49,833 nucleotides of DNA. Origin: Escherichia phage phi2013. Under the pieces are notes generated by a model, which worked only from the letters and a program-made list of their open reading frames with translations, was not told where the DNA came from and made no database searches. Location of the stretch: the sequence record MT427400.3, one strand, 5' to 3'. The first letter of the stretch is position 1, and each line of letters opens with the position of its first letter. Position numbers and translations under genes: made by a program. Shown one piece after another: positions 3,083 to 49,255 of this stretch.

Positions 3083-3125
3083 TAGCACGAATTGCTAAAC
3101 CTTCCGCAAGGCCATTTGATATAGT
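3083..3125 (+). promoter_or_regulatory. early promoter cassette
   Basis: tagcacgaattgctaaac; TTGCTA 3092-3097; 22-bp spacer with aaggcca/tggcctt dyad; TGa-TATAGT 3120-3125. Confidence 0.5.
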
Positions 3126-4426: not shown

Positions 4427-4645
4427 ATGGCTACTATCATAACAGCAGAAGATGCAGCACGCGACGCAGTGGAAGGAATGCGCCCAAATACCTCCAGAAT
4501 AGCACACTACTACAAATCTGAGGTGTCGGCAGTGCAATTGGTCAACGAAATTTTAAGGCTACCACAAGTCGATTCAGCGCGCGTGGTGACGTGCTTAAAA
4601 AATTATTTTTGCATCGCTATTAAAACGAATAGCACGAATTGCTAA
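4427..4645 (+). CDS. hypothetical protein
   Basis: 72-aa ORF. Confidence 0.4.
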   Translation: MATIITAEDAARDAVEGMRPNTSRIAHYYKSEVSAVQLVNEILRLPQVDSARVVTCLKNYFCIAIKTNSTNC

Positions 4646-4702: not shown

Positions 4703-5149
4703 ATGAAACACTTAATTTGCATTGAAACGCCTAACGACCAGCACACCCTGCACGGCATTGGAATGTTCAAAGGTCACTACATGACAGCAAGTATTCATGA
4801 TTCGCGTTGCGTCAATGGCGATCTGATGATTACGTCAAAAGAAGTAACTCCGTACATTATGCAGAATCTTGGCAATAACGAATATATGGCCTACGGATGC
4901 AATGCGGTGTACAAGCATATCAAGATCAGAAAACGCGTTGTTCGCGCATTCAAGAAAATTGCAATGAAACAATGGAAGATGAGCAAGAAAGATGCTGGAC
5001 GCTGGGCGCGTAACGTTGCAGATTCATACTTCTACCGTAACGGTGAGTCCTGCCACTTCCTTATCGATGAACTTATGGAAAACTACGGCGGCGACTTCAG
5101 TCAGGGTGGCTTTGACGCTTGGGCTGACTACGAGGTCGATTACTGGTAA
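4703..5149 (+). CDS. hypothetical protein
   Basis: start at ATG 4703 after SD acgagga; 148 aa. Confidence 0.5.
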   Translation: MKHLICIETPNDQHTLHGIGMFKGHYMTASIHDSRCVNGDLMITSKEVTPYIMQNLGNNEYMAYGCNAVYKHIKIRKRVVRAFKKIAMKQWKMSKKDAGRWARNVADSYFYRNGESCHFLIDELMENYGGDFSQGGFDAWADYEVDYW

Positions 5150-5192
5150 TAGCACGAATTGCTAAAACTTGCTCAAGGGCATTTGATAGAAT
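5150..5192 (+). promoter_or_regulatory. early promoter cassette
   Basis: tagcacgaattgctaaaac; 22-bp spacer with agggcat/atgccct dyad; TGa-TAGAAT 5187-5192. Confidence 0.5.
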
Positions 5193-5952: not shown

Positions 5953-6525
5953 ATGAAAACAGCTATCATTTTAAACGGTGCGCCTGGCGCGGGAAAAGAC
6001 ACTATAGGGTGCATCCTGGCTGACACTTACGATCATGTAGCGCTACGCAGCTTTAAAGCTCCAATGTTTGAGATTGCCCGAGCAATCCTGGGTGAGACTA
6101 ATTTTGAGTATTTCATGTTCTTGTATGAGGACCGTCGCTATAAAGAAGAGCCAGCATCAATCCTGAACGGTAAAAGCCCGCGCCAGTTTATGATCTGGAT
6201 TAGCGAGGAGGTTATCAAGCCGCAGTTCGGAAATCGCTTCTTCGGTATGCGAGCGGAAAGCAAGGTGAAAGAGTCTCACTCCCTTTCGGTATTTACTGAC
6301 GGTGGATTCAAAGACGAAATCTTGCAGATGATTGAAGGTGAAATCCAGGTCAAGCTATGTCGAATCCATCGCAACGGTTGCAACTTTGACAACGACAGTC
6401 GCGACTACATCTATCTTGACGATATGATCGGGGTCAACGGTTATCAGGAATGTGACTTCTTCTCTGTCGAAGGTCATCCAGAAATTACCGCTCAGCACAT
6501 AGCCGCCACGTTCATCAACAAATAG
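5953..6525 (+). CDS. P-loop nucleotide kinase, dNMP kinase-like
   Basis: Walker A GAPGAGKDT at N-terminus; LNGKSP motif recalled from T4 gp1-type dNMP kinase. Confidence 0.6.
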   Translation: MKTAIILNGAPGAGKDTIGCILADTYDHVALRSFKAPMFEIARAILGETNFEYFMFLYEDRRYKEEPASILNGKSPRQFMIWISEEVIKPQFGNRFFGMRAESKVKESHSLSVFTDGGFKDEILQMIEGEIQVKLCRIHRNGCNFDNDSRDYIYLDDMIGVNGYQECDFFSVEGHPEITAQHIAATFINK

Positions 6526-6565
6526 CACGAATTGCTAAAACGTCGGTGGGGTGACTTGATATAGT
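6523..6565 (+). promoter_or_regulatory. early promoter cassette
   Basis: tagcacgaattgctaaaac; 22-bp spacer; TGa-TATAGT 6560-6565. Confidence 0.5.
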
Positions 6566-6597
6566 TACCTCATCGACAACGAAGAGAGAAAATCGAA

Positions 6598-8334: not shown

Positions 8335-8386
8335 TGCCTGCAATATGGTAAAATAGCACTAAATGTTAAACAAAGAGGATGGATTT

Positions 8387-15041: not shown

Positions 15042-15084
15042 CATAAAAACACTTTGACGCTTTAACAAAAAGTGCTATTATTGA

Positions 15085-18785: not shown

Positions 18786-18861
18786 TCTGTAAAATCATCC
18801 TATCAACTCTATTCACTTAACTTTTAACAAAAAGTGCTATCAACCAATCAGGAGAAACATC

Positions 18862-34390: not shown

Positions 34391-34467
34391 AGTATAAACT
34401 CCTTAAGTAAATAGCACTAATTGCTAAACGCTGATTTTATCATTGTGCTATCCGACTTGCAATAGAC

Positions 34468-34490
34468 AATAAAAAACCGCCAGAAGGCGG
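34468..34490 (-). terminator. rho-independent terminator after primase gene
   Basis: ccgcc agaa ggcgg with T-run on minus strand. Confidence 0.5.
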
Positions 34491-35426
34491 TCAGAGTAGG
34501 TCACTTGCTGAGAATAACTTGGCTTGCATTCCTGAGCGGTATCCTCCAGGATTTGGGATGATTATTTTTAATTGTCGGTCGTCTGCCATGTATAAAGTCT
34601 CCTTGTCTGAAGGTTCGCACGCAACCCTTACTTCTCGATCCCCTTTATATCTGTATGCAACCATTTCCAGATTCTCAGGAGTGAAGCAGGCCCATACCTC
34701 TTGCTTTGTGTGAAATGCAATATGCTGAGCATCAATCCAATTAAGGCATAAGTAGATCGCTTTTTCTGTTTTACCAGTCACGGCAACCGAGCAACTTGTG
34801 TATTTCTTAGCGTAAAATGACTCCCTACCCTCCTCATCAATAATCAAAATATTACAAAACTCATCATCAAGACCGTCCTCGTGTACAAGTTGACATGGTA
34901 TGGTGTGAAATACGCTCTCGCCGCCATCCTCGCGACGTTTTACGCCAGCGTCGAATGATTCAGTAGGTAGAGATTCAAACATGCTTAGAGGTGTGTTTAC
35001 GCGCTTCTCTGTACGCTCCATGACTTTCATCACCGCTTCATGATCTGCCATCATGACATTGACACCAGATACCGGAGTTCGGCGCGCTTTCTTGTTTGCC
35101 TTGACGATGTATTCCTGCGGAACTTTTCCGAGAAATCTTCCCAGGATATTTATGCATTCGCTATACGGCATACCAGTTAATTTCATTAGCCACCCGATCC
35201 CGGAGTCGTTACCGCATGAGTTGCAGATCGCACCTCCGTCGCCCGGAGTGTTCAGGTTATCAGTCCAGCGAAAGCGGTCTTTACCTCCGCAGTTAGGGCA
35301 AGGTTGGTGCTTCTTATTAAAAACATCATTCGGCAATCCGCAGATTGATTGGAAAGCCTCGCGCCATAACCCCTTCATGTACGGCAAAACGTCCTCTTTC
35401 TGAAACATCATAAATTCTTCGTTCAC
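34491..35426 (-). CDS. DNA primase (zinc-ribbon plus TOPRIM-like)
   Basis: CPNCGGKDRFRW...CNSCG zinc ribbon; probable GTG start 35426 after SD ggaga. Confidence 0.55.
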   Translation of the reverse strand: MNEEFMMFQKEDVLPYMKGLWREAFQSICGLPNDVFNKKHQPCPNCGGKDRFRWTDNLNTPGDGGAICNSCGNDSGIGWLMKLTGMPYSECINILGRFLGKVPQEYIVKANKKARRTPVSGVNVMMADHEAVMKVMERTEKRVNTPLSMFESLPTESFDAGVKRREDGGESVFHTIPCQLVHEDGLDDEFCNILIIDEEGRESFYAKKYTSCSVAVTGKTEKAIYLCLNWIDAQHIAFHTKQEVWACFTPENLEMVAYRYKGDREVRVACEPSDKETLYMADDRQLKIIIPNPGGYRSGMQAKLFSASDLL

Positions 35427-35440
35427 TTCCAGATCTCCAA

Positions 35441-35487
35441 AATAAAAAACGCGTAGAAGGATGTTAACCCGCTACGCGTCGTTTGTT
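35441..35487 (-). terminator. hairpin terminator after HTH gene
   Basis: acgcgtag/ctacgcgt 8-bp stem with T-run on minus strand. Confidence 0.45.
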
Positions 35488-35940
35488 TTAACTAAAAATG
35501 CTATTGGTCGTTCCGATATCTTCCTTCTTCACGACGCGCATAAATTTCTTGTTCTTGCATCGCTTCTCAAGGCACTTGCCGTTACCGTCAAACTTCAGGT
35601 CGAATCGCAACCATGCGGCACGAAATCCTTTGCACCCCTGTCGGCGGTAAGCGCGATGCGCAGCTTCAGCGCCTTGCCATGAAATCATATTTCGATCTTT
35701 CCAGCCTTGCACCGTCTGATTGCTAACTTTTAGAGCCTTTGCGCAGGCCGCAGGGCCGCCGTAATATTCGATAAGAGCATCAAGTCGCGCTCGCAGTCCG
35801 GCGCGTGTTTCTTCTTTATGAATATAGAACCCGCAACGCTGTCGAGGCTTTTTATCTTTACCGCGCCGTGTTCCGTTGTTACCATTGATGTGACGTTTAT
35901 CGATTTTACCAGTTGATTCTGCGATACGTTGAATACTCAT
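35488..35940 (-). CDS. HTH DNA-binding protein (Cro/YdaS-like), candidate transcriptional regulator
   Basis: GGPAACAKALKVSNQTVQGWKDRNMISWQGA helix-turn-helix pattern; SD aggaga; divergent from helicase. Confidence 0.5.
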   Translation of the reverse strand: MSIQRIAESTGKIDKRHINGNNGTRRGKDKKPRQRCGFYIHKEETRAGLRARLDALIEYYGGPAACAKALKVSNQTVQGWKDRNMISWQGAEAAHRAYRRQGCKGFRAAWLRFDLKFDGNGKCLEKRCKNKKFMRVVKKEDIGTTNSIFS

Positions 35941-35953
35941 CTTGATTCTCCTA

Positions 35954-35996
35954 TAGCACTTTTTGCTAAAAACGTTTACTTTATGCCGTGTATTAT
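35954..35996 (+). promoter_or_regulatory. helicase promoter cassette (TAGCAC-N5-TTGCTA, 22 bp, TATTAT)
   Basis: tagcactttttgctaaaa; TTGCTA 35963-35968; TATTAT 35991-35996; the palindrome also covers the SD region of the divergent HTH gene. Confidence 0.5.
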
Positions 35997-36033
35997 AGCG
36001 TAAACGTTACAACGATTCAAAGGATTAATAGCC

Positions 36034-38052
36034 GTGACAATGAACATTAAAAAACAGATTGCGTTACTTGGAGAGGACTACATAAAGCGAACTCAGGAGC
36101 GATTCACTGTAGGTGAGGTAGTTCCTTATCCGTATCAGGTTGTTGCTTACGCCGAGATCGCGAAGCGCTTGTCAAATTATGAGCACCCATTCTTCGTTAA
36201 AGCGTCTGTATCCGCAGGCAAGACAATTATTTTCGCTATGGTGGCAAAGCAGTGTCAGAAAATGGGCTTAAAAATGCTTGTCCTGGCTCGACAGGGTGAG
36301 ATTGTCGATCAGGATAGCGAAGAGATCGACAACTTCGGGGTAACGAACTCCATCTTCTCAGCATCGCTTGGAATCAAGTCCTGCTACTTCCCGATCGTGG
36401 TTGGCTCTGAGGGTACGGTTGCAAATGGCCTCGACAATGAGTTGGCTGATTTTGTCCCGCATGTAATTGGGATCGACGAATGTCACCAGGTGGATTGGGA
36501 AGACCTTGCGCAAGCCATCGAGGGTAAGGAAACAATGGAACAGATGAGGGGCGAGAAAGGGAAAATTATCATGGACGGAGATATTCCCCTGATTGGTAAT
36601 GATGGAAAACCTTTGCTTGGAACTAAGCGTAGTCAGTACACGATCGTAATCATGGAAATGATGCGGCGCTGTAAAAAGGTTCACGGGCACGATCTTAGAA
36701 TATTCGGCATGACGGGATCTGAATTTCGTGGCGTAGTTCCTATTCTGGTAGAGAATCCGAAAGCATTGGGATTCTGGCGTGAGCGAGTAACTGATATCGA
36801 CACAAACTATCTGATTGAGTTCGGCTCTGTCGTTCCGACTATATTCGGATCAACAGACGGAGTTCATTACGATCTGGATAAGTTCAAGGCGTCTAGCGAG
36901 GACGGAGTGCAGGACTTTACAGAGAAAGACATGAAGGCTATGGAAGATGAGATCCTTCATGATAAATCTCTGACTCAGCGAATCATGCAAATGGTCGCCA
37001 AAAAGGCAGAAGAACGCAATGCGGTCTTGATTACATGTGCTGGTGTGCGCCACTGCAAAGAGGCAGCGGCAGCACTTCCTCCGGGAAGCACCTATGCAAT
37101 TATTACTGGCGACACAGACAACAAATCGCGCAAGAAGATTCTGGACGATGTAAGGGCTGGGAAAATTAAATACACCTTTCAGGTTATGGCGCTCACTACT
37201 GGCGTTAACGTTCCAAATTGGGATTTCAGTGTCATACTCCGCAAGATAGGGTCGCTCACACTATTGATTCAACTTTTGGGTAGGGGTATGCGTCTGCTTA
37301 AATCCTGGCAGGTTGCTGAGGGAATGGTTAAGCAGGACCATCTGGTATGGGATTTCGCAGGTACGATGGATGAGTTGGGTCAGCTTTATTTCGATCCGAT
37401 ACTTGAGCAGGCGCAATTCCAAAATCGTTTTGAAAACGGCAAAGATCCGAAAACATGTCCGAAATGCGGTTGCGTAAATAGCTTCTATGCTCGACGATGC
37501 GTTAATGTCATTGATGGTGAACGTTGCGATCATTTCTGGACTTCTCAAATTTGTGAGGACCAGGTTGACGAGCGCACCGGAAAAATCCTTGTTAAAGGAT
37601 GCGGTGCAGAGAATGACGTTGTGGCCCGAGTCTGTCGCTGTTGCGATGTTTCTCTTGTTGATCCTAACCTTAAGTTATCCGGTAAGGCGTACACTAAGAA
37701 TGACTGGTACGAGGTCAAGAATTTTGAAGTTACGTTAACCAAAAACCAAAAGGGTGTGATATACAAATACACACTTATTAATGATGAGGGTGACGAGTTC
37801 AAGGCGTATGAAAAATTCTTCCCTGAGTCAGACTCTAAGATTTGCGGTACGCTATGGAAAACGAAAGGAGTATTACCTCACGTATCAGATCCTAAAATGC
37901 GCCGCTACTTTATCGGAATGAAGAACGCCATCAAGATCGTGCAGTACGCACATCATATTGCTCACCCGGTGCGCGTAACTCATCGTCGCAACCAGAAGAA
38001 AGAAGATATTATCTCACGCAAAGACTTCGGTATGGAGGATATCCCGGAATGA
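36034..38052 (+). CDS. SF2 DEAD/DEAH-box helicase with C-terminal zinc ribbons
   Basis: motif I SAGKT, motif II DECH; CPKCGC...C..H and CRCCD clusters; start GTG 36034 or ATG 36040. Confidence 0.7.
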   Translation: MTMNIKKQIALLGEDYIKRTQERFTVGEVVPYPYQVVAYAEIAKRLSNYEHPFFVKASVSAGKTIIFAMVAKQCQKMGLKMLVLARQGEIVDQDSEEIDNFGVTNSIFSASLGIKSCYFPIVVGSEGTVANGLDNELADFVPHVIGIDECHQVDWEDLAQAIEGKETMEQMRGEKGKIIMDGDIPLIGNDGKPLLGTKRSQYTIVIMEMMRRCKKVHGHDLRIFGMTGSEFRGVVPILVENPKALGFWRERVTDIDTNYLIEFGSVVPTIFGSTDGVHYDLDKFKASSEDGVQDFTEKDMKAMEDEILHDKSLTQRIMQMVAKKAEERNAVLITCAGVRHCKEAAAALPPGSTYAIITGDTDNKSRKKILDDVRAGKIKYTFQVMALTTGVNVPNWDFSVILRKIGSLTLLIQLLGRGMRLLKSWQVAEGMVKQDHLVWDFAGTMDELGQLYFDPILEQAQFQNRFENGKDPKTCPKCGCVNSFYARRCVNVIDGERCDHFWTSQICEDQVDERTGKILVKGCGAENDVVARVCRCCDVSLVDPNLKLSGKAYTKNDWYEVKNFEVTLTKNQKGVIYKYTLINDEGDEFKAYEKFFPESDSKICGTLWKTKGVLPHVSDPKMRRYFIGMKNAIKIVQYAHHIAHPVRVTHRRNQKKEDIISRKDFGMEDIPE

Positions 38053-38465
38053 TTACAGACAAAGGTGATTATTTAGAGTTTTACGAGCGAGATCCCAGCG
38101 ACACTCGAAAGGAGGACGCTCATCAGGTGGATTGTGTGTCCTGGCTGAAATACAATTTCCCTCACCTTCTATTTTGGCACACTGTCAATGAAGGTGAAAA
38201 AACAATCACATCAGCGCTCAGGGATGAGCAGGCCGGATTACTTAAAGGAGTGTCGGACTTCGTTATCCTGATTGGTGTTAACTCAAGATACCCGTTTGCA
38301 GCAATCGAACTTAAGCGGGTTAATAAGTCAGGCAAAGGAAAGGCGTCACCAGTCAGCGACAAGCAAAGGGAATTTCTCAGAAAGGTCATGGAGCGTGGCG
38401 GCTTCTCTGCCGTCGCATACGGATTTGAGCAATTCAAGATCGCAATTTACGAAATGATGAAATAG
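38049..38465 (+). CDS. VRR-NUC domain nuclease (PD-(D/E)XK)
   Basis: GVSDFVILIG...AAIELKR (D...ExK) and SDKQREFLRKV...GG pattern. Confidence 0.6.
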   Translation: MITDKGDYLEFYERDPSDTRKEDAHQVDCVSWLKYNFPHLLFWHTVNEGEKTITSALRDEQAGLLKGVSDFVILIGVNSRYPFAAIELKRVNKSGKGKASPVSDKQREFLRKVMERGGFSAVAYGFEQFKIAIYEMMK

Positions 38466-38508
38466 CACTTTTTGTTAAAACTGCCGGAATGGAATCTGGC
38501 ATTATTAT
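38463..38508 (+). promoter_or_regulatory. promoter cassette
   Basis: tagcactttttgttaaaac followed about 22 bp later by TATTAT-like hexamer. Confidence 0.4.
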
Positions 38509-39246: not shown

Positions 39247-39494
39247 TGAACGAGAAAATGATTCCGGTTAAGTTAACTGATCAAGGTTTATGGCTGCTTT
39301 ATCGAGCTACCTGCTGCGAAATTATGGAGCGAAACGGATTGACTCAGGATGTTATTGGTTGCGATCTGTGGGAGTTCACTAGTTCTCTTGATATGTCTTT
39401 CGATGAGATAAAAAATGAATACATAGAGAATTGGCCTTCAATCATACAGAAAGACGTGGAAGAACTTAAAGCTGATACAATCGTACAGCACTAA
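39243..39494 (+). CDS. hypothetical protein
   Basis: ATG overlaps Dam stop (ATGA); SD gtgagga. Confidence 0.45.
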   Translation: MMNEKMIPVKLTDQGLWLLYRATCCEIMERNGLTQDVIGCDLWEFTSSLDMSFDEIKNEYIENWPSIIQKDVEELKADTIVQH

Positions 39495-39528
39495 TTGCTA
39501 AAAATACCCGACGAAAGTCGGGTATAGT
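39487..39528 (+). promoter_or_regulatory. promoter cassette
   Basis: agcactaattgctaaaa; 22-bp spacer with acccgac/gtcgggt hairpin; TATAGT 39523-39528. Confidence 0.5.
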
Positions 39529-40330: not shown

Positions 40331-41482
40331 ATGTCACAAGCTAAAATCACTACCGAGCAACTTGTCGAAGAGCGCATGAACGGCCTTACACTTCGCGAGA
40401 TCGCGGAAAAGTACGGTATGCATATTCGAACTGTTGAGGCTCGACACGCAAAATTGGCAAAAGAAGGCCACTTTCACGGCAATGAGCATGTTGCTAAAAA
40501 CGTTCCTGAAGGCTTCATGGTAAAAGGCACATCAACAATGATTCGCGGTGATGGGACTGAGGTCGTGCGATGGGTTAAGACCGATCAGGACCGTGAGAAG
40601 ATTGCAGCTATGATGGAAGCTGCACGCATTGCATTTTGTGAAGACTTGCCGCGAGCAAAGCCAACTGAGCTGCTCACATCGCAAGGTCTTACAACCTCTA
40701 TTGGAAAGCTGGCACTATACCCGGTGTTCGATCTTCACATTGGCGCGCTTGCTCATAAGCATGAATGTGGAGAGAACTACTCTACCGACGTAGCGGAAAA
40801 AGTGCTTAGCGACTTCTTTAATTACGCGATCGATATTGCTCCGAACGCAGAGAAGGCCGTTCTTTTAATCGGCGGTGACTTCCTTCACTCGGACGGTCTT
40901 GATGCTGTTACCCCGGCAAGTGGTCACGTTCTGGATCAGGATTCACGATATGCAAAATTGGTGCATGTAGCTATTAGATCTGTTCGTCGCGCTATCGACA
41001 AAATGCTACTGAAACACAAAGAAGTCGAGGTCCAGGTTATCGAAGGGAACCACGATCAGTCTGGGATGATTTGGCTGCGCGCTGCAATGTCGGCATATTA
41101 TGAAGACGAGCCGCGAGTATTCGTTGACGTTAGTCCTATGATTCTGCATAAGACTCGTTGGGGAAATACCTTGTTGGGATACACTCACGGGCACACTATG
41201 AAAAAGGCAGAGACTCGACTCGCAGCTATGGCAGCAGATTTCCGCGCAGATTTTGGTGAAAGCAAATACGTGTACACGCATAGCGGTCACTGGCATCACC
41301 AGACAATCACTGAGCACTCACTCGGTATTGATGAGGTTCACGGCCAGTTAGGCGCGAAAGACGCATACGCAGCACGAGGAGGGTGGCGCTCGTATCGCCA
41401 GGCGGCTGTAATTGTTTACGATAAGCAATTTGGGGAAATCGGTCGTTTCATCTATCGTCCAGAAATGACAGGATCGCACTAA
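40331..41482 (+). CDS. calcineurin-like metallophosphoesterase with N-terminal HTH
   Basis: GDFLH, GNHD, GH and GHWHH metallophosphatase motifs; N-terminal LTLREIAEKYGMHIRTV helix-turn-helix. Confidence 0.65.
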   Translation: MSQAKITTEQLVEERMNGLTLREIAEKYGMHIRTVEARHAKLAKEGHFHGNEHVAKNVPEGFMVKGTSTMIRGDGTEVVRWVKTDQDREKIAAMMEAARIAFCEDLPRAKPTELLTSQGLTTSIGKLALYPVFDLHIGALAHKHECGENYSTDVAEKVLSDFFNYAIDIAPNAEKAVLLIGGDFLHSDGLDAVTPASGHVLDQDSRYAKLVHVAIRSVRRAIDKMLLKHKEVEVQVIEGNHDQSGMIWLRAAMSAYYEDEPRVFVDVSPMILHKTRWGNTLLGYTHGHTMKKAETRLAAMAADFRADFGESKYVYTHSGHWHHQTITEHSLGIDEVHGQLGAKDAYAARGGWRSYRQAAVIVYDKQFGEIGRFIYRPEMTGSH

Positions 41483-41516
41483 TTGATAAAAACTCCCGAA
41501 GGGATTCGGGCATAGT
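41476..41516 (+). promoter_or_regulatory. promoter cassette
   Basis: gcactaattgataaaaac; 22-bp spacer with cccgaa/ttcggg hairpin; CATAGT. Confidence 0.4.
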
Positions 41517-43066: not shown

Positions 43067-43474
43067 TCAAATTCTTCTTTCGTAAGCTGGAGCCTTGCGC
43101 ACAATTCGACGTTCCGATCTATCAATGTTTCTACGTTCTCCAAACAAATCCTCATCACTCATCTCTCCAATGTGCATCATTTCCCACGTATACCGATTGT
43201 TGTAGCCATCAATACACATCAGCTTCATCATTACCGGGCGCTTAATCTTTCCCTTGCACCAGTAAAACCCATCCCTGCAATCAAGATAACCCTCAGTTAC
43301 ACAGCGTGAGCAAAACTCCTTAGATAGCGCGCTTGTAAATTCACGGCGAGTCATTCCTGCGGCCTTAGCAAATCGCTCACTTTCCTTGTGGGCGTATATA
43401 AATTTCGCTATGTGCTGTCGAGTGTATTTGTCGTAACCTTCGCAGAACCTGAACAGATCTAAAAGAAGAAGCAT
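43067..43474 (-). CDS. hypothetical Cys-rich protein
   Basis: 135 aa with 7 Cys; overlaps stop of upstream gene. Confidence 0.5.
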   Translation of the reverse strand: MLLLLDLFRFCEGYDKYTRQHIAKFIYAHKESERFAKAAGMTRREFTSALSKEFCSRCVTEGYLDCRDGFYWCKGKIKRPVMMKLMCIDGYNNRYTWEMMHIGEMSDEDLFGERRNIDRSERRIVRKAPAYERRI

Positions 43475-45076: not shown

Positions 45077-45120
45077 ATGATACACCGCCAATGGTACACG
45101 CGTTTTGCAAAAAGTGCTAT
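45077..45120 (-). promoter_or_regulatory. promoter cassette (minus strand)
   Basis: minus-strand tagcactttttgcaaaa, 22-bp spacer, TATCAT, upstream of ATPase gene. Confidence 0.45.
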
Positions 45121-45577: not shown

Positions 45578-45620
45578 CTTTATCAAATGACCTTACGGCA
45601 ATATTAACAAATCGTGCTAT
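45578..45620 (-). promoter_or_regulatory. promoter cassette (minus strand, approximate)
   Basis: minus-strand tagcacgatttgttaa then about 21 bp then TGa-TAAAGT. Confidence 0.4.
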
Positions 45621-46091: not shown

Positions 46092-46136
46092 AATATACCT
46101 TACCCCCTATTGTATGTCTTTAGCAATTCGTGCTAT
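46092..46136 (-). promoter_or_regulatory. promoter cassette (minus strand, approximate)
   Basis: minus-strand tagcacgaattgctaaa then about 22 bp then TATATT. Confidence 0.4.
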
Positions 46137-47208: not shown

Positions 47209-47252
47209 ACTATACCAGCCATCCCGGATGCGCGTTTAGCAAAAAGTGCTAT
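47209..47252 (-). promoter_or_regulatory. promoter cassette (minus strand)
   Basis: minus-strand tagcactttttgctaaa, 22-bp spacer with gggatg/catccc dyad, TATAGT. Confidence 0.5.
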
Positions 47253-47672: not shown

Positions 47673-47717
47673 ATTATGCCAAATCGCACCGATCGAGTTT
47701 TAACAAAAAGTGCTATT
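47673..47717 (-). promoter_or_regulatory. promoter cassette (minus strand)
   Basis: minus-strand tagcactttttgttaaa, 22-bp spacer, CATAAT. Confidence 0.45.
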
Positions 47718-48645: not shown

Positions 48646-48690
48646 ATCATACCCTGCCGACCTGGCTGAGTCGTTAGCAAAAAATGCTAT
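48646..48690 (-). promoter_or_regulatory. promoter cassette (minus strand, approximate)
   Basis: minus-strand tagcattttttgctaa then about 22-23 bp then TATGAT. Confidence 0.4.
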
Positions 48691-48839: not shown

Positions 48840-49000
48840 ATCTAGTGTTGCCCGGTTCGCCTGGTAGTCATCTCCATTTTTAGCAAAAAGTGCTATCGAT
48901 TACACTTTACCTTGTCACAGATGTAATATTTGTCTAGAATCGCACTTGTGACAAAATTACACACTGTGACGCCTCTAAATATACATATAGATATATGTAT

Positions 49001-49017
49001 CTATATAATATATATAG
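49001..49017. repeat. 17-bp AT-rich repeat CTATATAATATATATAG (copy 2)
   Basis: exact match to 29902-29918. Confidence 0.65.
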
Positions 49018-49240
49018 TGTTTTCTTTATTTATATATATAGATAATTATATTGTAATAGTTGTGTATAGTTGTCTTACATTGTCTAGCGTACTGTTGGCA
49101 TATTTCTATCTGCATGTTTATATATACAGTACTTTTTTGAGAGCTATATATTTCTATAGTGACTCTAGACAGCTAGACAAATGTTACACAGCTTAATATC
49201 GGCTCGCAGTCATTGACAGCTCTGTATCGCACTGTCACAA

Positions 49241-49255
49241 TGTCAATTGTTGACA
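49241..49255. repeat. perfect palindrome TGTCAA-TTG-TTGACA
   Basis: 6-bp arms; nearby related half-sites tgtcaca, tgtgaca, ctagaca, tgtctag. Confidence 0.6.

Follow-up and report, generated by a model that had tools for sequence, protein, structure and literature searches.

The window analyzed here is the whole stretch of 49,833 nucleotides (nt) from Escherichia phage phi2013 (sequence record MT427400.3), and the element under study is a palindrome, TAGCACTTTTTGCTA, located at 35954-35968 in the spacer between the leftward pir gene and a divergent, rightward helicase gene. Judged by its sequence, the palindrome forms the core of aATAGCACnnnTTGnTAAAA, a repeat known from the Drexlerviridae. 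This repeat is an oriented promoter module, of which it forms the upstream half, rather than a free-standing operator, and it is very probably a promoter element of fixed position. About 18 promoters in each genome carry the same invariant dyad at -42 instead of a -35 element, and the dyad also takes operator-like positions in the pir leader and at the capsid and tail-fibre promoters. The palindrome noted in a preliminary description of the window is better read as a promoter element than as a plain operator, and the repeat had been published earlier (PMC11447400). Both components, the repeat family and the regulator Pir, were already known. New are the fixed geometry of 22 base pairs (bp), the divergent promoters with overlapping -10 boxes, the reverse copies placed like operators, and the contrast between an invariant site and a variable helix-turn-helix (HTH) in Pir.

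The phage was assigned by sequence comparison. Over 34400-38500 (4.1 kb compared), the window was 100% identical to Enterobacteria phage vB_EcoS_IME167, 99.9% to JMPW1 and 94.6% to coliphage T1, which places it as a T1-like coliphage of the Drexlerviridae, genus Tunavirus. T1 is one of the original T phages; to our knowledge, its transcription programme has never been worked out. With the geometry described below, an unexplained repeat becomes a concrete model of a T1-like temporal switch. The whole is a moderately interesting refinement rather than a new kind of system.

Copy number and promoter spacing of the repeat

On the + strand, positions 35951-35971 (dyad core 35954-35968) read ctATAGCACTTTTTGCTAAAA, oriented toward the helicase gene and matching the 21-nt Drexlerviridae repeat aaATAGCACnnnTTGnTAAAA; a consensus derived from 49 sites was identical. 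Copies were counted as TAGCA-N5-TGCTA. Ten exact copies were obtained against 0.05 expected, a number reached in none of 100 shuffles, and allowing at most one mismatch gave 23 copies against 1.5 expected, in agreement with the roughly 20 copies noted before. The asymmetry of the dyad is constant (TAGCAC ... TTGnTA, followed by AAA), so that the repeat has a direction. It occurs family-wide and is invariant across Escherichia, Klebsiella and Pantoea phages and metagenomic lineages. Among the IMG/VR matches listed, multi-copy occurrence was found mainly in contigs of about 50 kb and in a few shorter ones.

The 21-nt direct repeat was described for phage TLS, with 21 copies co-oriented with transcription and located approximately 76 nt upstream of start codons, and was also reported for T1, Rtp and Rogue1 (Kropinski and colleagues 2024, PMC11447400). 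A stoperator, an enhancer site and an UP element were named there as possible functions. The repeat of the window has the same consensus, a similar copy number (about 23 versus 21) and the same orientation with transcription. Both are found some 75-80 nt before start codons (80 nt from 35954 to the helicase start codon at 36034), and both show centre classes of the TTT/GAA/AAA type. The fixed 22-bp link to a -10 element, the absence of a -35 element, the reverse copies in canonical promoters and a connection to Pir are not part of that description.

Spacing to the -10 element was determined for 79 copies pooled from the window, Rogue1, KP36, Pantoea phage AAS23 and three metagenomic contigs. 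A [T/C]AnnnT hexamer started 21 nt after the repeat in 7 copies, 22 nt after it in 52 and 23 nt after it in 10. Thus, 69 of the 79 copies carried a -10-like hexamer at 22±1 bp, any other offset from 12 to 32 was seen in at most three copies, and the counts per genome were concordant. Within the window, TAnnnT was located exactly 22 nt downstream in 15 of 22 good copies and 23 nt downstream in two more. Eighteen copies faced a start codon 52-72 nt downstream, consistent with PMC11447400. No TTGACA-like -35 was found at 16-18 bp of the repeat-linked -10 elements. The -10 was TG-extended in about half of the copies, and the G at -14 was conserved in the 49-site consensus.

The -10 begins 29 nt downstream of the dyad centre, which is thereby placed at -42 if the -10 spans -12 to -7. 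Because the -10-like hexamer is found at a fixed distance and the -35 is absent, the dyad can be placed at about -42, which would be the position of a class II activator. The further features of such promoters were present as well: a site near -41.5 over the position of the -35, no -35 itself, and a -10 that is often TG-extended. Canonical sigma-70 promoters, searched genome-wide at 10 or more of 12 matches, were not enriched (12 versus 13.2 in shuffles), so that the repeat modules are probably the main promoters of the early arms, the replication genes and the lysis region.

Other readings of the element by host RNA polymerase were compared and rejected. An UP element, that is, an A/T-rich site for the alpha C-terminal domain at -40 to -60, does not fit, since the most informative positions are G/C (TAGCAC, TTGC) and the element reaches -31. 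A sigma-54 promoter (TGGCAC-N5-TTGCW, -24/-12) does not fit either: the repeat has AG for GG and 3 nt between TAGCAC and TTGC, and a sigma-70-type -10 sits 22 nt downstream. Readings as sigma-32, sigma-28 or sigma-E promoters were ruled out by the spacing and composition of the sequence. As far as is known, the sites of the host factors CRP, FNR, Fis, IHF, ArcA and OxyR do not fit the repeat.

Some features of the repeat were recorded alongside. The three central bases fall into few classes (TTT, GAA, TAA) in every genus, as read from the copies of the window and of three further genomes (L003, L004 and L005, the last being AAS23). TTT is mostly found at the helicase, dam and right-arm promoters, and GAA mostly at the promoters of small genes in the left arm; the Pir-responsive dam promoter has TTT and the Pir-independent orf65 promoter has GAA. 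At least four upstream genes end in a TAG that belongs to the repeat (775-777, 1796-1798, 6523-6525 and 38463-38465). Copies that extend into the 3′ end of a coding region have altered first bases, CAGCAC at 39486 and TCGCAC at 41474.

Downstream sequences were scanned for secondary structure over 42 nt after each promoter-type copy (e.g., 792-833, 6540-6581 and 35971-36008). In 16 of 19 repeat promoters, the sequence separating the repeat from the start region folds into a stable hairpin (mean z of -3.2 relative to shuffles), and the -10 hexamer is usually located in the loop or the 3′ arm. The arms differ between promoters yet stay complementary, which suggests selection on a nucleic-acid structure and not on a site for a protein. 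Transcripts running antisense would meet the hairpin and then the TTTTA of the repeat, and could be terminated there.

The divergent pir and helicase promoters and the reverse copies

The pir gene (35488-35940, - strand; ATG 35940-35938) is an open reading frame (ORF) of 150 amino acids and the orthologue of T1 orf23 (Pir). The helicase gene (36034-38052, + strand) encodes ResIII and Helicase_C domains and is the first gene of the rightward replication operon. A zinc-ribbon primase gene lies downstream of pir, and a VRR-NUC nuclease gene follows the helicase gene. The arrangement of pir with the divergent helicase gene and the downstream primase gene was found in the window, in T1 and in seven further related sequences.

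The spacer is organized as follows. The Shine-Dalgarno sequence of pir, AGGAG (35948-35952, - strand), lies 2 nt from the palindrome, which agrees with the adjacency described before, and a ribosome-binding site is annotated at the equivalent position in T1. The helicase -10, TATTAT (35991-35996, + strand), starts 22 nt after the repeat, exactly at the coordinates given in the preliminary description. It has no -35 at 17 bp, and a transcription start can be deduced at about 36003. The Shine-Dalgarno sequence of the helicase gene, AAGGA, is located at 36020-36024 (+ strand) and corresponds to a ribosome-binding site annotated in T1. In the other direction, pir has a canonical sigma-70 promoter (35992-36020, - strand) with TTGAAT at 36020-36015, a 17-nt spacer and TATAAT at 35997-35992 (10 of 12 matches), which is annotated as a promoter in T1 and KP36. 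Its transcript would start at about 35985, placing the dyad at approximately +18 to +32. The pir -10 (35997-35992) and the helicase -10 (35991-35996) share five bp on opposite strands, so that both promoters cannot be occupied together.

The order pir, Shine-Dalgarno sequence, repeat, 21-23 nt and TATTAT is kept in every lineage examined, namely Rogue1, KP36, AAS23 and the metagenomic contigs designated L006, L128, L129 and L130, with the -10 variants TATGAT in L006 and TATTCT in AAS23. The -35/-10 promoter of pir on the other strand was present in the lineages where it was read (the window, Rogue1, KP36 and AAS23).

An inverted repeat encloses the overlapping -10 boxes, its left arm at 35971-35984 and its right arm at 35995-36008 (unstranded; 14 nt, 86% complementary; hairpin z = -3.4). 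As a specific operator this inverted repeat, AACGTTTAC/GTAAACGTT (9-14 bp), was rejected: it is absent from other genera and represents one case of the hairpins of variable sequence at most repeat promoters. The pir leader folded no better than its shuffles (z = 0.06), and the same was found for the helicase leader.

Reverse copies occur in or near canonical promoters. The strong canonical promoter of the major capsid gene (15054-15081, + strand; TTGACG-16-TATTAT with TG) has its spacer filled by a reverse repeat at 15063-15077, and the same register was found in AAS23 (L005, 5945-5972), which belongs to a distant genus. The GTGCTA half of this reverse repeat supplies the TG and the TA of the extended -10. 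The tail-fibre promoter (34462-34434, - strand; region 34412-34462) is sigma-70-like, with TTGCAA-17-TAAAAT, and a + oriented repeat at 34412-34426 would cover about +2 to +16 of its transcript. By their placement these copies look like operators. A protein acting as an activator from -42, and as a repressor when located over a core promoter or an early leader, would be expected to have its sites at such positions, and the repeat is likely to be a dual activator and repressor site.

Candidate readers of the repeat

In the reading preferred here, to which we give a probability of roughly 0.55, a phage-encoded protein acts at the repeat. A dimer on the dyad would recruit host RNA polymerase to the helicase promoter from about -42. 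The dimer would also close the pir promoter, in part as a roadblock and in part because the two promoters compete for their overlapping -10 boxes. Because the -10 boxes overlap, transcription of pir and of the helicase gene would be mutually exclusive, and negative autoregulation would be coupled to activation of the replication operon. At the approximately 18 promoter-type copies this protein would likewise act as an activator, and at the canonical promoters bearing a reverse copy (major capsid and tail fibre) as a repressor. Anatomy and conservation were observed directly, and effects on the pir and dam promoters (Ppir and Pdam) are published; binding of a protein to the dyad and the identity of this protein are the inferred steps. 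For Pir, the proposed target sequence would be TAGCACnnnTTGnTA.

Pir is the leading candidate for the binder, at somewhat less than even odds. The protein of the window is identical to T1 Orf23 in 147 of 150 residues (98%), and T1 Orf23 is Pir, the ‘prophage induction regulator’ (Laganenka et al. 2019, PMC6737242). Green fluorescent protein reporter assays were carried out with the T1 protein rather than that of this isolate, expressed by itself in phage-free E. coli: Pir raised the activity of the hol and dam promoters and lowered that of the pir and recE promoters (PMC6737242). The autoregulation suggested in the preliminary description is in line with this. Pdam carries the repeat at -42 and Ppir carries it in the leader, and the up and down responses of these promoters have the signs expected from the repeat positions. 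Counted for Pir as well, pir itself is expressed from one of the few canonical promoters. A literature search gave no paper linking Pir to the repeat.

The fold of Pir was assigned by profile and structure searches. An HTH at residues ~61-84, Cro-like, is preceded by an invariant basic N-terminal arm and followed by a conserved C-terminal motif (F/Y-R-A-x-F-C-R-P-D-L-x-F-D). Pfam matches were below cut-off, both to P22_Cro (E = 5e-5; 23.4 versus 30.2 bits) and to YdaS (E = 1e-3; 19.2 versus 30). The NCBIfam match to carph-isopro scored 35 against a cut-off of 38, and a PHROGs match was also obtained. A PDB profile search gave P22 Cro and Xfaso Cro (E 0.008-0.02). An AlphaFold2 model had a predicted local distance difference test (pLDDT) score above 90 over residues 37-140, and Foldseek matched it to Xfaso Cro and to the N15 Cro-DNA complex (probability 0.99-1.0; template modeling score 0.67-0.73, target-normalized; E 0.01-0.2). 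According to the model, Pir is a protein of the all-alpha, Cro-like fold. Of the earlier label ‘Cro/YdaS-like’, the Cro part is backed by the PDB profile and Foldseek matches; the Pfam matches behind the label are sub-threshold.

Several observations weigh against Pir, or against the preferred reading as a whole. No binding site for Pir was defined in PMC6737242. Although a perfect copy lies 22 nt from TATGAT in the orf65 promoter (Porf65), this promoter was published as Pir-independent; Phol and PrecE respond to Pir, by activation and repression respectively, without a copy of the repeat (PMC6737242). An alternative dyad common to the four Pir-responsive promoter fragments was not found. The transcription start sites on which the placements depend were deduced from sequence. 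In addition, conservation is distributed differently in the protein and in the site. Among 16 Pir sequences, mean column conservation was 0.86 in the N-terminal arm and 0.78 in the C-terminal motif, whereas helix 2 reached 0.51 and the recognition helix 0.49, the lowest value of any structured segment. The arm, DKRxxNGNNGTRRGKDKKPRKR (residues 13-34; window 35839-35904, - strand), comes out as disordered in the model (pLDDT <55); it is the most conserved part of the protein and persists in sequences with an overall identity as low as 33%. In three lineages whose Pir is only 33-36% identical, and whose helix 3 reads NPLEYREMIR, NGLRMVLWKQ and KRHRVARWVE instead of NQTVQGWKDR, the repeat is unchanged. 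Co-variation between repeat and helix 3 was looked for down to 33% Pir identity and no lineage had a changed repeat, which is mildly negative for Pir; scans of IMG/VR and JGI metagenomes for a divergent Pir subfamily gave no matches. With an invariant repeat and a variable helix 3, Pir, if it is the reader, probably does not use canonical helix-3 contacts. The obvious candidate may thus not read the site through its HTH, and the conservation pattern points to the conserved arm of Pir, to a second conserved protein or to RNA polymerase itself.

The earlier statement that the HTH protein is the only obvious sequence-specific DNA-binding protein of the genome proved too strong. Orf65 is a published second regulator, which represses Ppir and activates its own repeat-bearing promoter (PMC6737242), and the T1 record annotates two further HTH-like proteins, one of which models as winged-helix-like. 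As a general binder of the repeat, Orf65 (about 4703-5149) was rejected: it occurs in 65 phage records only, against 824 for Pir, which is found family-wide, and is absent from Rogue1, KP36, AAS23, L006 and L128-L130. For the proposal that the HTH protein binds the repeat copies and coordinates their promoters, the effects on Pdam and Ppir and the general 22-bp link speak in favor, and Porf65, Phol, PrecE, the variability of helix 3 and the other candidate proteins speak against.

A different conserved phage protein could read the repeat, with the HTH of Pir having lineage-specific targets or acting indirectly; we consider this unlikely. The example at hand is the T1p10-like protein (43067-43474), encoded beside a DUF3987 helicase-like gene. 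It is as widespread as Pir (835 records) and, in one divergent lineage (L130), better conserved, being 50% identical where Pir is 35% identical, which also counts against Pir. Its model has four helices and a beta-hairpin, and its long helix 43-60 carries residues that are invariant across lineages. An invariant repeat facing a variable Pir recognition helix would fit such a second reader, as would the Pir independence of Porf65 (PMC6737242). However, the regulatory role of the T1p10-like protein is a prediction from its model: Foldseek matches to winged-helix proteins were weak (E >0.3), and neither Pfam nor NCBIfam gave a match. This explanation also leaves the effects of Pir alone on Pdam and Ppir in a phage-free host unexplained (PMC6737242).

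Just as improbable in our judgment is that no phage protein reads the repeat, which would then be a cis element for host RNA polymerase or a host factor (UP-like or enhancer), with Pir acting otherwise. For the total invariance of the repeat across Escherichia, Klebsiella and Pantoea phages and metagenomic lineages, a host reader that evolves slowly would be the simplest explanation. TTGnTA, the right half, looks like a -35 hexamer, Pdam and Porf65 had reporter activity in phage-free cells without Pir (PMC6737242), and an UP element was among the suggestions in PMC11447400. Against this, UP elements are A/T-rich, in contrast to a repeat with invariant G/C positions and a perfect 5-bp dyad, and the reverse copies embedded in canonical promoters are operator-like. 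Region 4 of sigma in a normal holoenzyme cannot span a 22-bp spacing, and none of the E. coli factor sites named above is known to fit. Moreover, among the IMG/VR matches listed, the multi-copy element is mainly found in phage contigs of about 50 kb.

Sigma appropriation is less likely still. Here the arm (DKRxxNGNNGTRRGxDKxxRKR) and the C-terminal CRPDLxFD motif of Pir would dock on host RNA polymerase, so that promoters with a -35 are switched off and TTGnTA at 22 bp from the -10 is used instead. It would be a single-protein analogue of T4 AsiA plus MotA and would explain a fixed DNA element despite a variable HTH. The invariant parts of Pir do lie outside the HTH. Both canonical promoters tested were repressed, namely Ppir (TTGAAT-17-TATAAT) and the repeat-free PrecE (TTGACT-16-TATAAT), and Pdam, without a -35, was activated. 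T1 Phol can be read as TTGCGT-22-TAAAAT. This last reading was set aside as ambiguous, since Phol is equally readable as TTGTGT-17-TAAAAT and the 22-bp pattern is not conserved in other genera. Porf65 (TTGCTA-22-TATGAT) was not activated by Pir (PMC6737242), and Pir showed no similarity to AsiA, MotA or gp39 in Pfam, PDB profile, PHROGs and Foldseek searches, which leaves sigma appropriation a purely inferential proposal.

A role of the palindrome in RNA, either as a leader hairpin controlling translation or stability of the pir transcript or solely as a stoperator-like transcriptional stop, is highly improbable: the dyad does lie in the pir 5′ untranslated region, 2 nt from the Shine-Dalgarno sequence, and its orientation relative to transcription recalls the stoperators of mycobacteriophage L5, with a compatible placement in 3-4 copies (pir leader, tail-fibre leader, before terS), but the leader folds as its shuffles do, the stem has only 5 bp, and the other 18 copies are promoter-linked, upstream of and not inside the following units, at a fixed distance from the -10.

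Related systems, further copies and neighboring genes

The proposed arrangement was compared with known systems. Class II activators include CRP and FNR at -41.5, lambda cI at OR2 for PRM, and Mu Mor. Lambda cI at OR2 shares with the repeat a Cro/cI-type HTH, a dyad near -42 and a poor -35, and in both cases one site would activate one promoter and repress the divergent one. In contrast to lambda, the regulator here would repress its own promoter and activate the other, the -10 boxes overlap, and there is one site rather than three cooperative ones, with a binder that is a candidate. CRP/FNR promoters and those of Mu Mor and C also have a dyad over the -35 position, no -35, a good and often TG-extended -10, and one site common to many promoters. 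The site of the window differs from these by its 15-bp length, its 6-bp half-sites (TAGCAC / TAGCAA) and its constant asymmetry; a relation of Pir to CRP, FNR, Mor or C was not found in sequence or fold.

T4 middle promoters, served by MotA and AsiA, similarly have a phage-specific box in place of the -35 at many promoters, with -35-dependent promoters turned down. The MotA box, however, is centred at -30, 11-13 bp from the -10, and no MotA or AsiA homologue was detected. The L5 stoperators resemble the repeat as many copies of a short oriented site spread over the genome, some of them in transcribed leaders; they differ by acting within transcription units without a tie to a -10, whereas most copies here have a fixed promoter position. 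As to the published Pir of T1, the gene has the same position divergent from the helicase gene, and autorepression and Pdam activation are as guessed in the preliminary description, whereas activation of Phol, repression of PrecE and the indifference of Porf65 are effects that the repeat cannot explain.

The remaining promoter-type copies lie on both strands. On the + strand they were found at 36-50 (22 nt to TATAGT), 775-789 and 1796-1810, the latter two providing the stop codon of the upstream ORF, and at 2357-2371 as an AAGCAC variant (22 nt to TGgTATAAT). Further copies are located at 3083-3097, at 4630-4644 in the orf65 promoter, at 5150-5164, and at 6523-6537, where a 15-bp hairpin follows. 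Beyond the helicase gene, the + strand carries the copy of the dam promoter (38463-38477), a CAGCAC variant overlapping the 3′ end of the upstream ORF (39486-39500), and a degenerate copy, TCGCACTAATTGATA, upstream of the lysis region (41474-41488). On the - strand, copies were found at 45105-45119 (promoter of the DUF3987 helicase-like gene), 45605-45619, 46121-46135, 47237-47251, 47701-47715 and 48675-48689, those at 46121 and 48675 having a 23-nt spacer.

No -10 accompanies two further copies. The one at 8354-8368 (+ strand) directly follows a terminator and lies 7 nt before the terS ribosome-binding site, leaving no room for a -10; it is possible that it gates read-through into the late operon. 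The other, an orphan reverse copy at 48881-48895 (- strand), precedes the -35 of a canonical rightward promoter by 16 nt. This promoter (48912-48940) is the first of three tandem canonical sigma-70-like rightward promoters near the genome end, together with those at 48980-49009 and 49213-49241, which are candidate immediate-early promoters for unmodified host polymerase. A reverse repeat in the late region (18825-18839, - strand) is followed after 22 nt by TGaTAGGAT on the - strand, and transcription from it would run antisense to late genes, including that of the major tail protein.

Two minor observations concern records and genes of the family. Drexlerviridae are frequent contaminants in laboratories and fermentations and common phage-therapy isolates. 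About 20 records titled ‘Campylobacter phage’ (e.g., MG065649) contain T1-like pir, helicase and T1p10-like genes and look like mislabelled or contaminating Drexlerviridae sequences. Finally, residues 10-38 of the SbcD-like exonuclease (T1p16 homologue; 40331-41482, + strand) gave weak matches to sigma-70 region 4 and HTH_23 (E ~0.01). The same N-terminal similarity was recorded by the annotators of KP36, and this N-terminus may be an extra DNA-binding domain.

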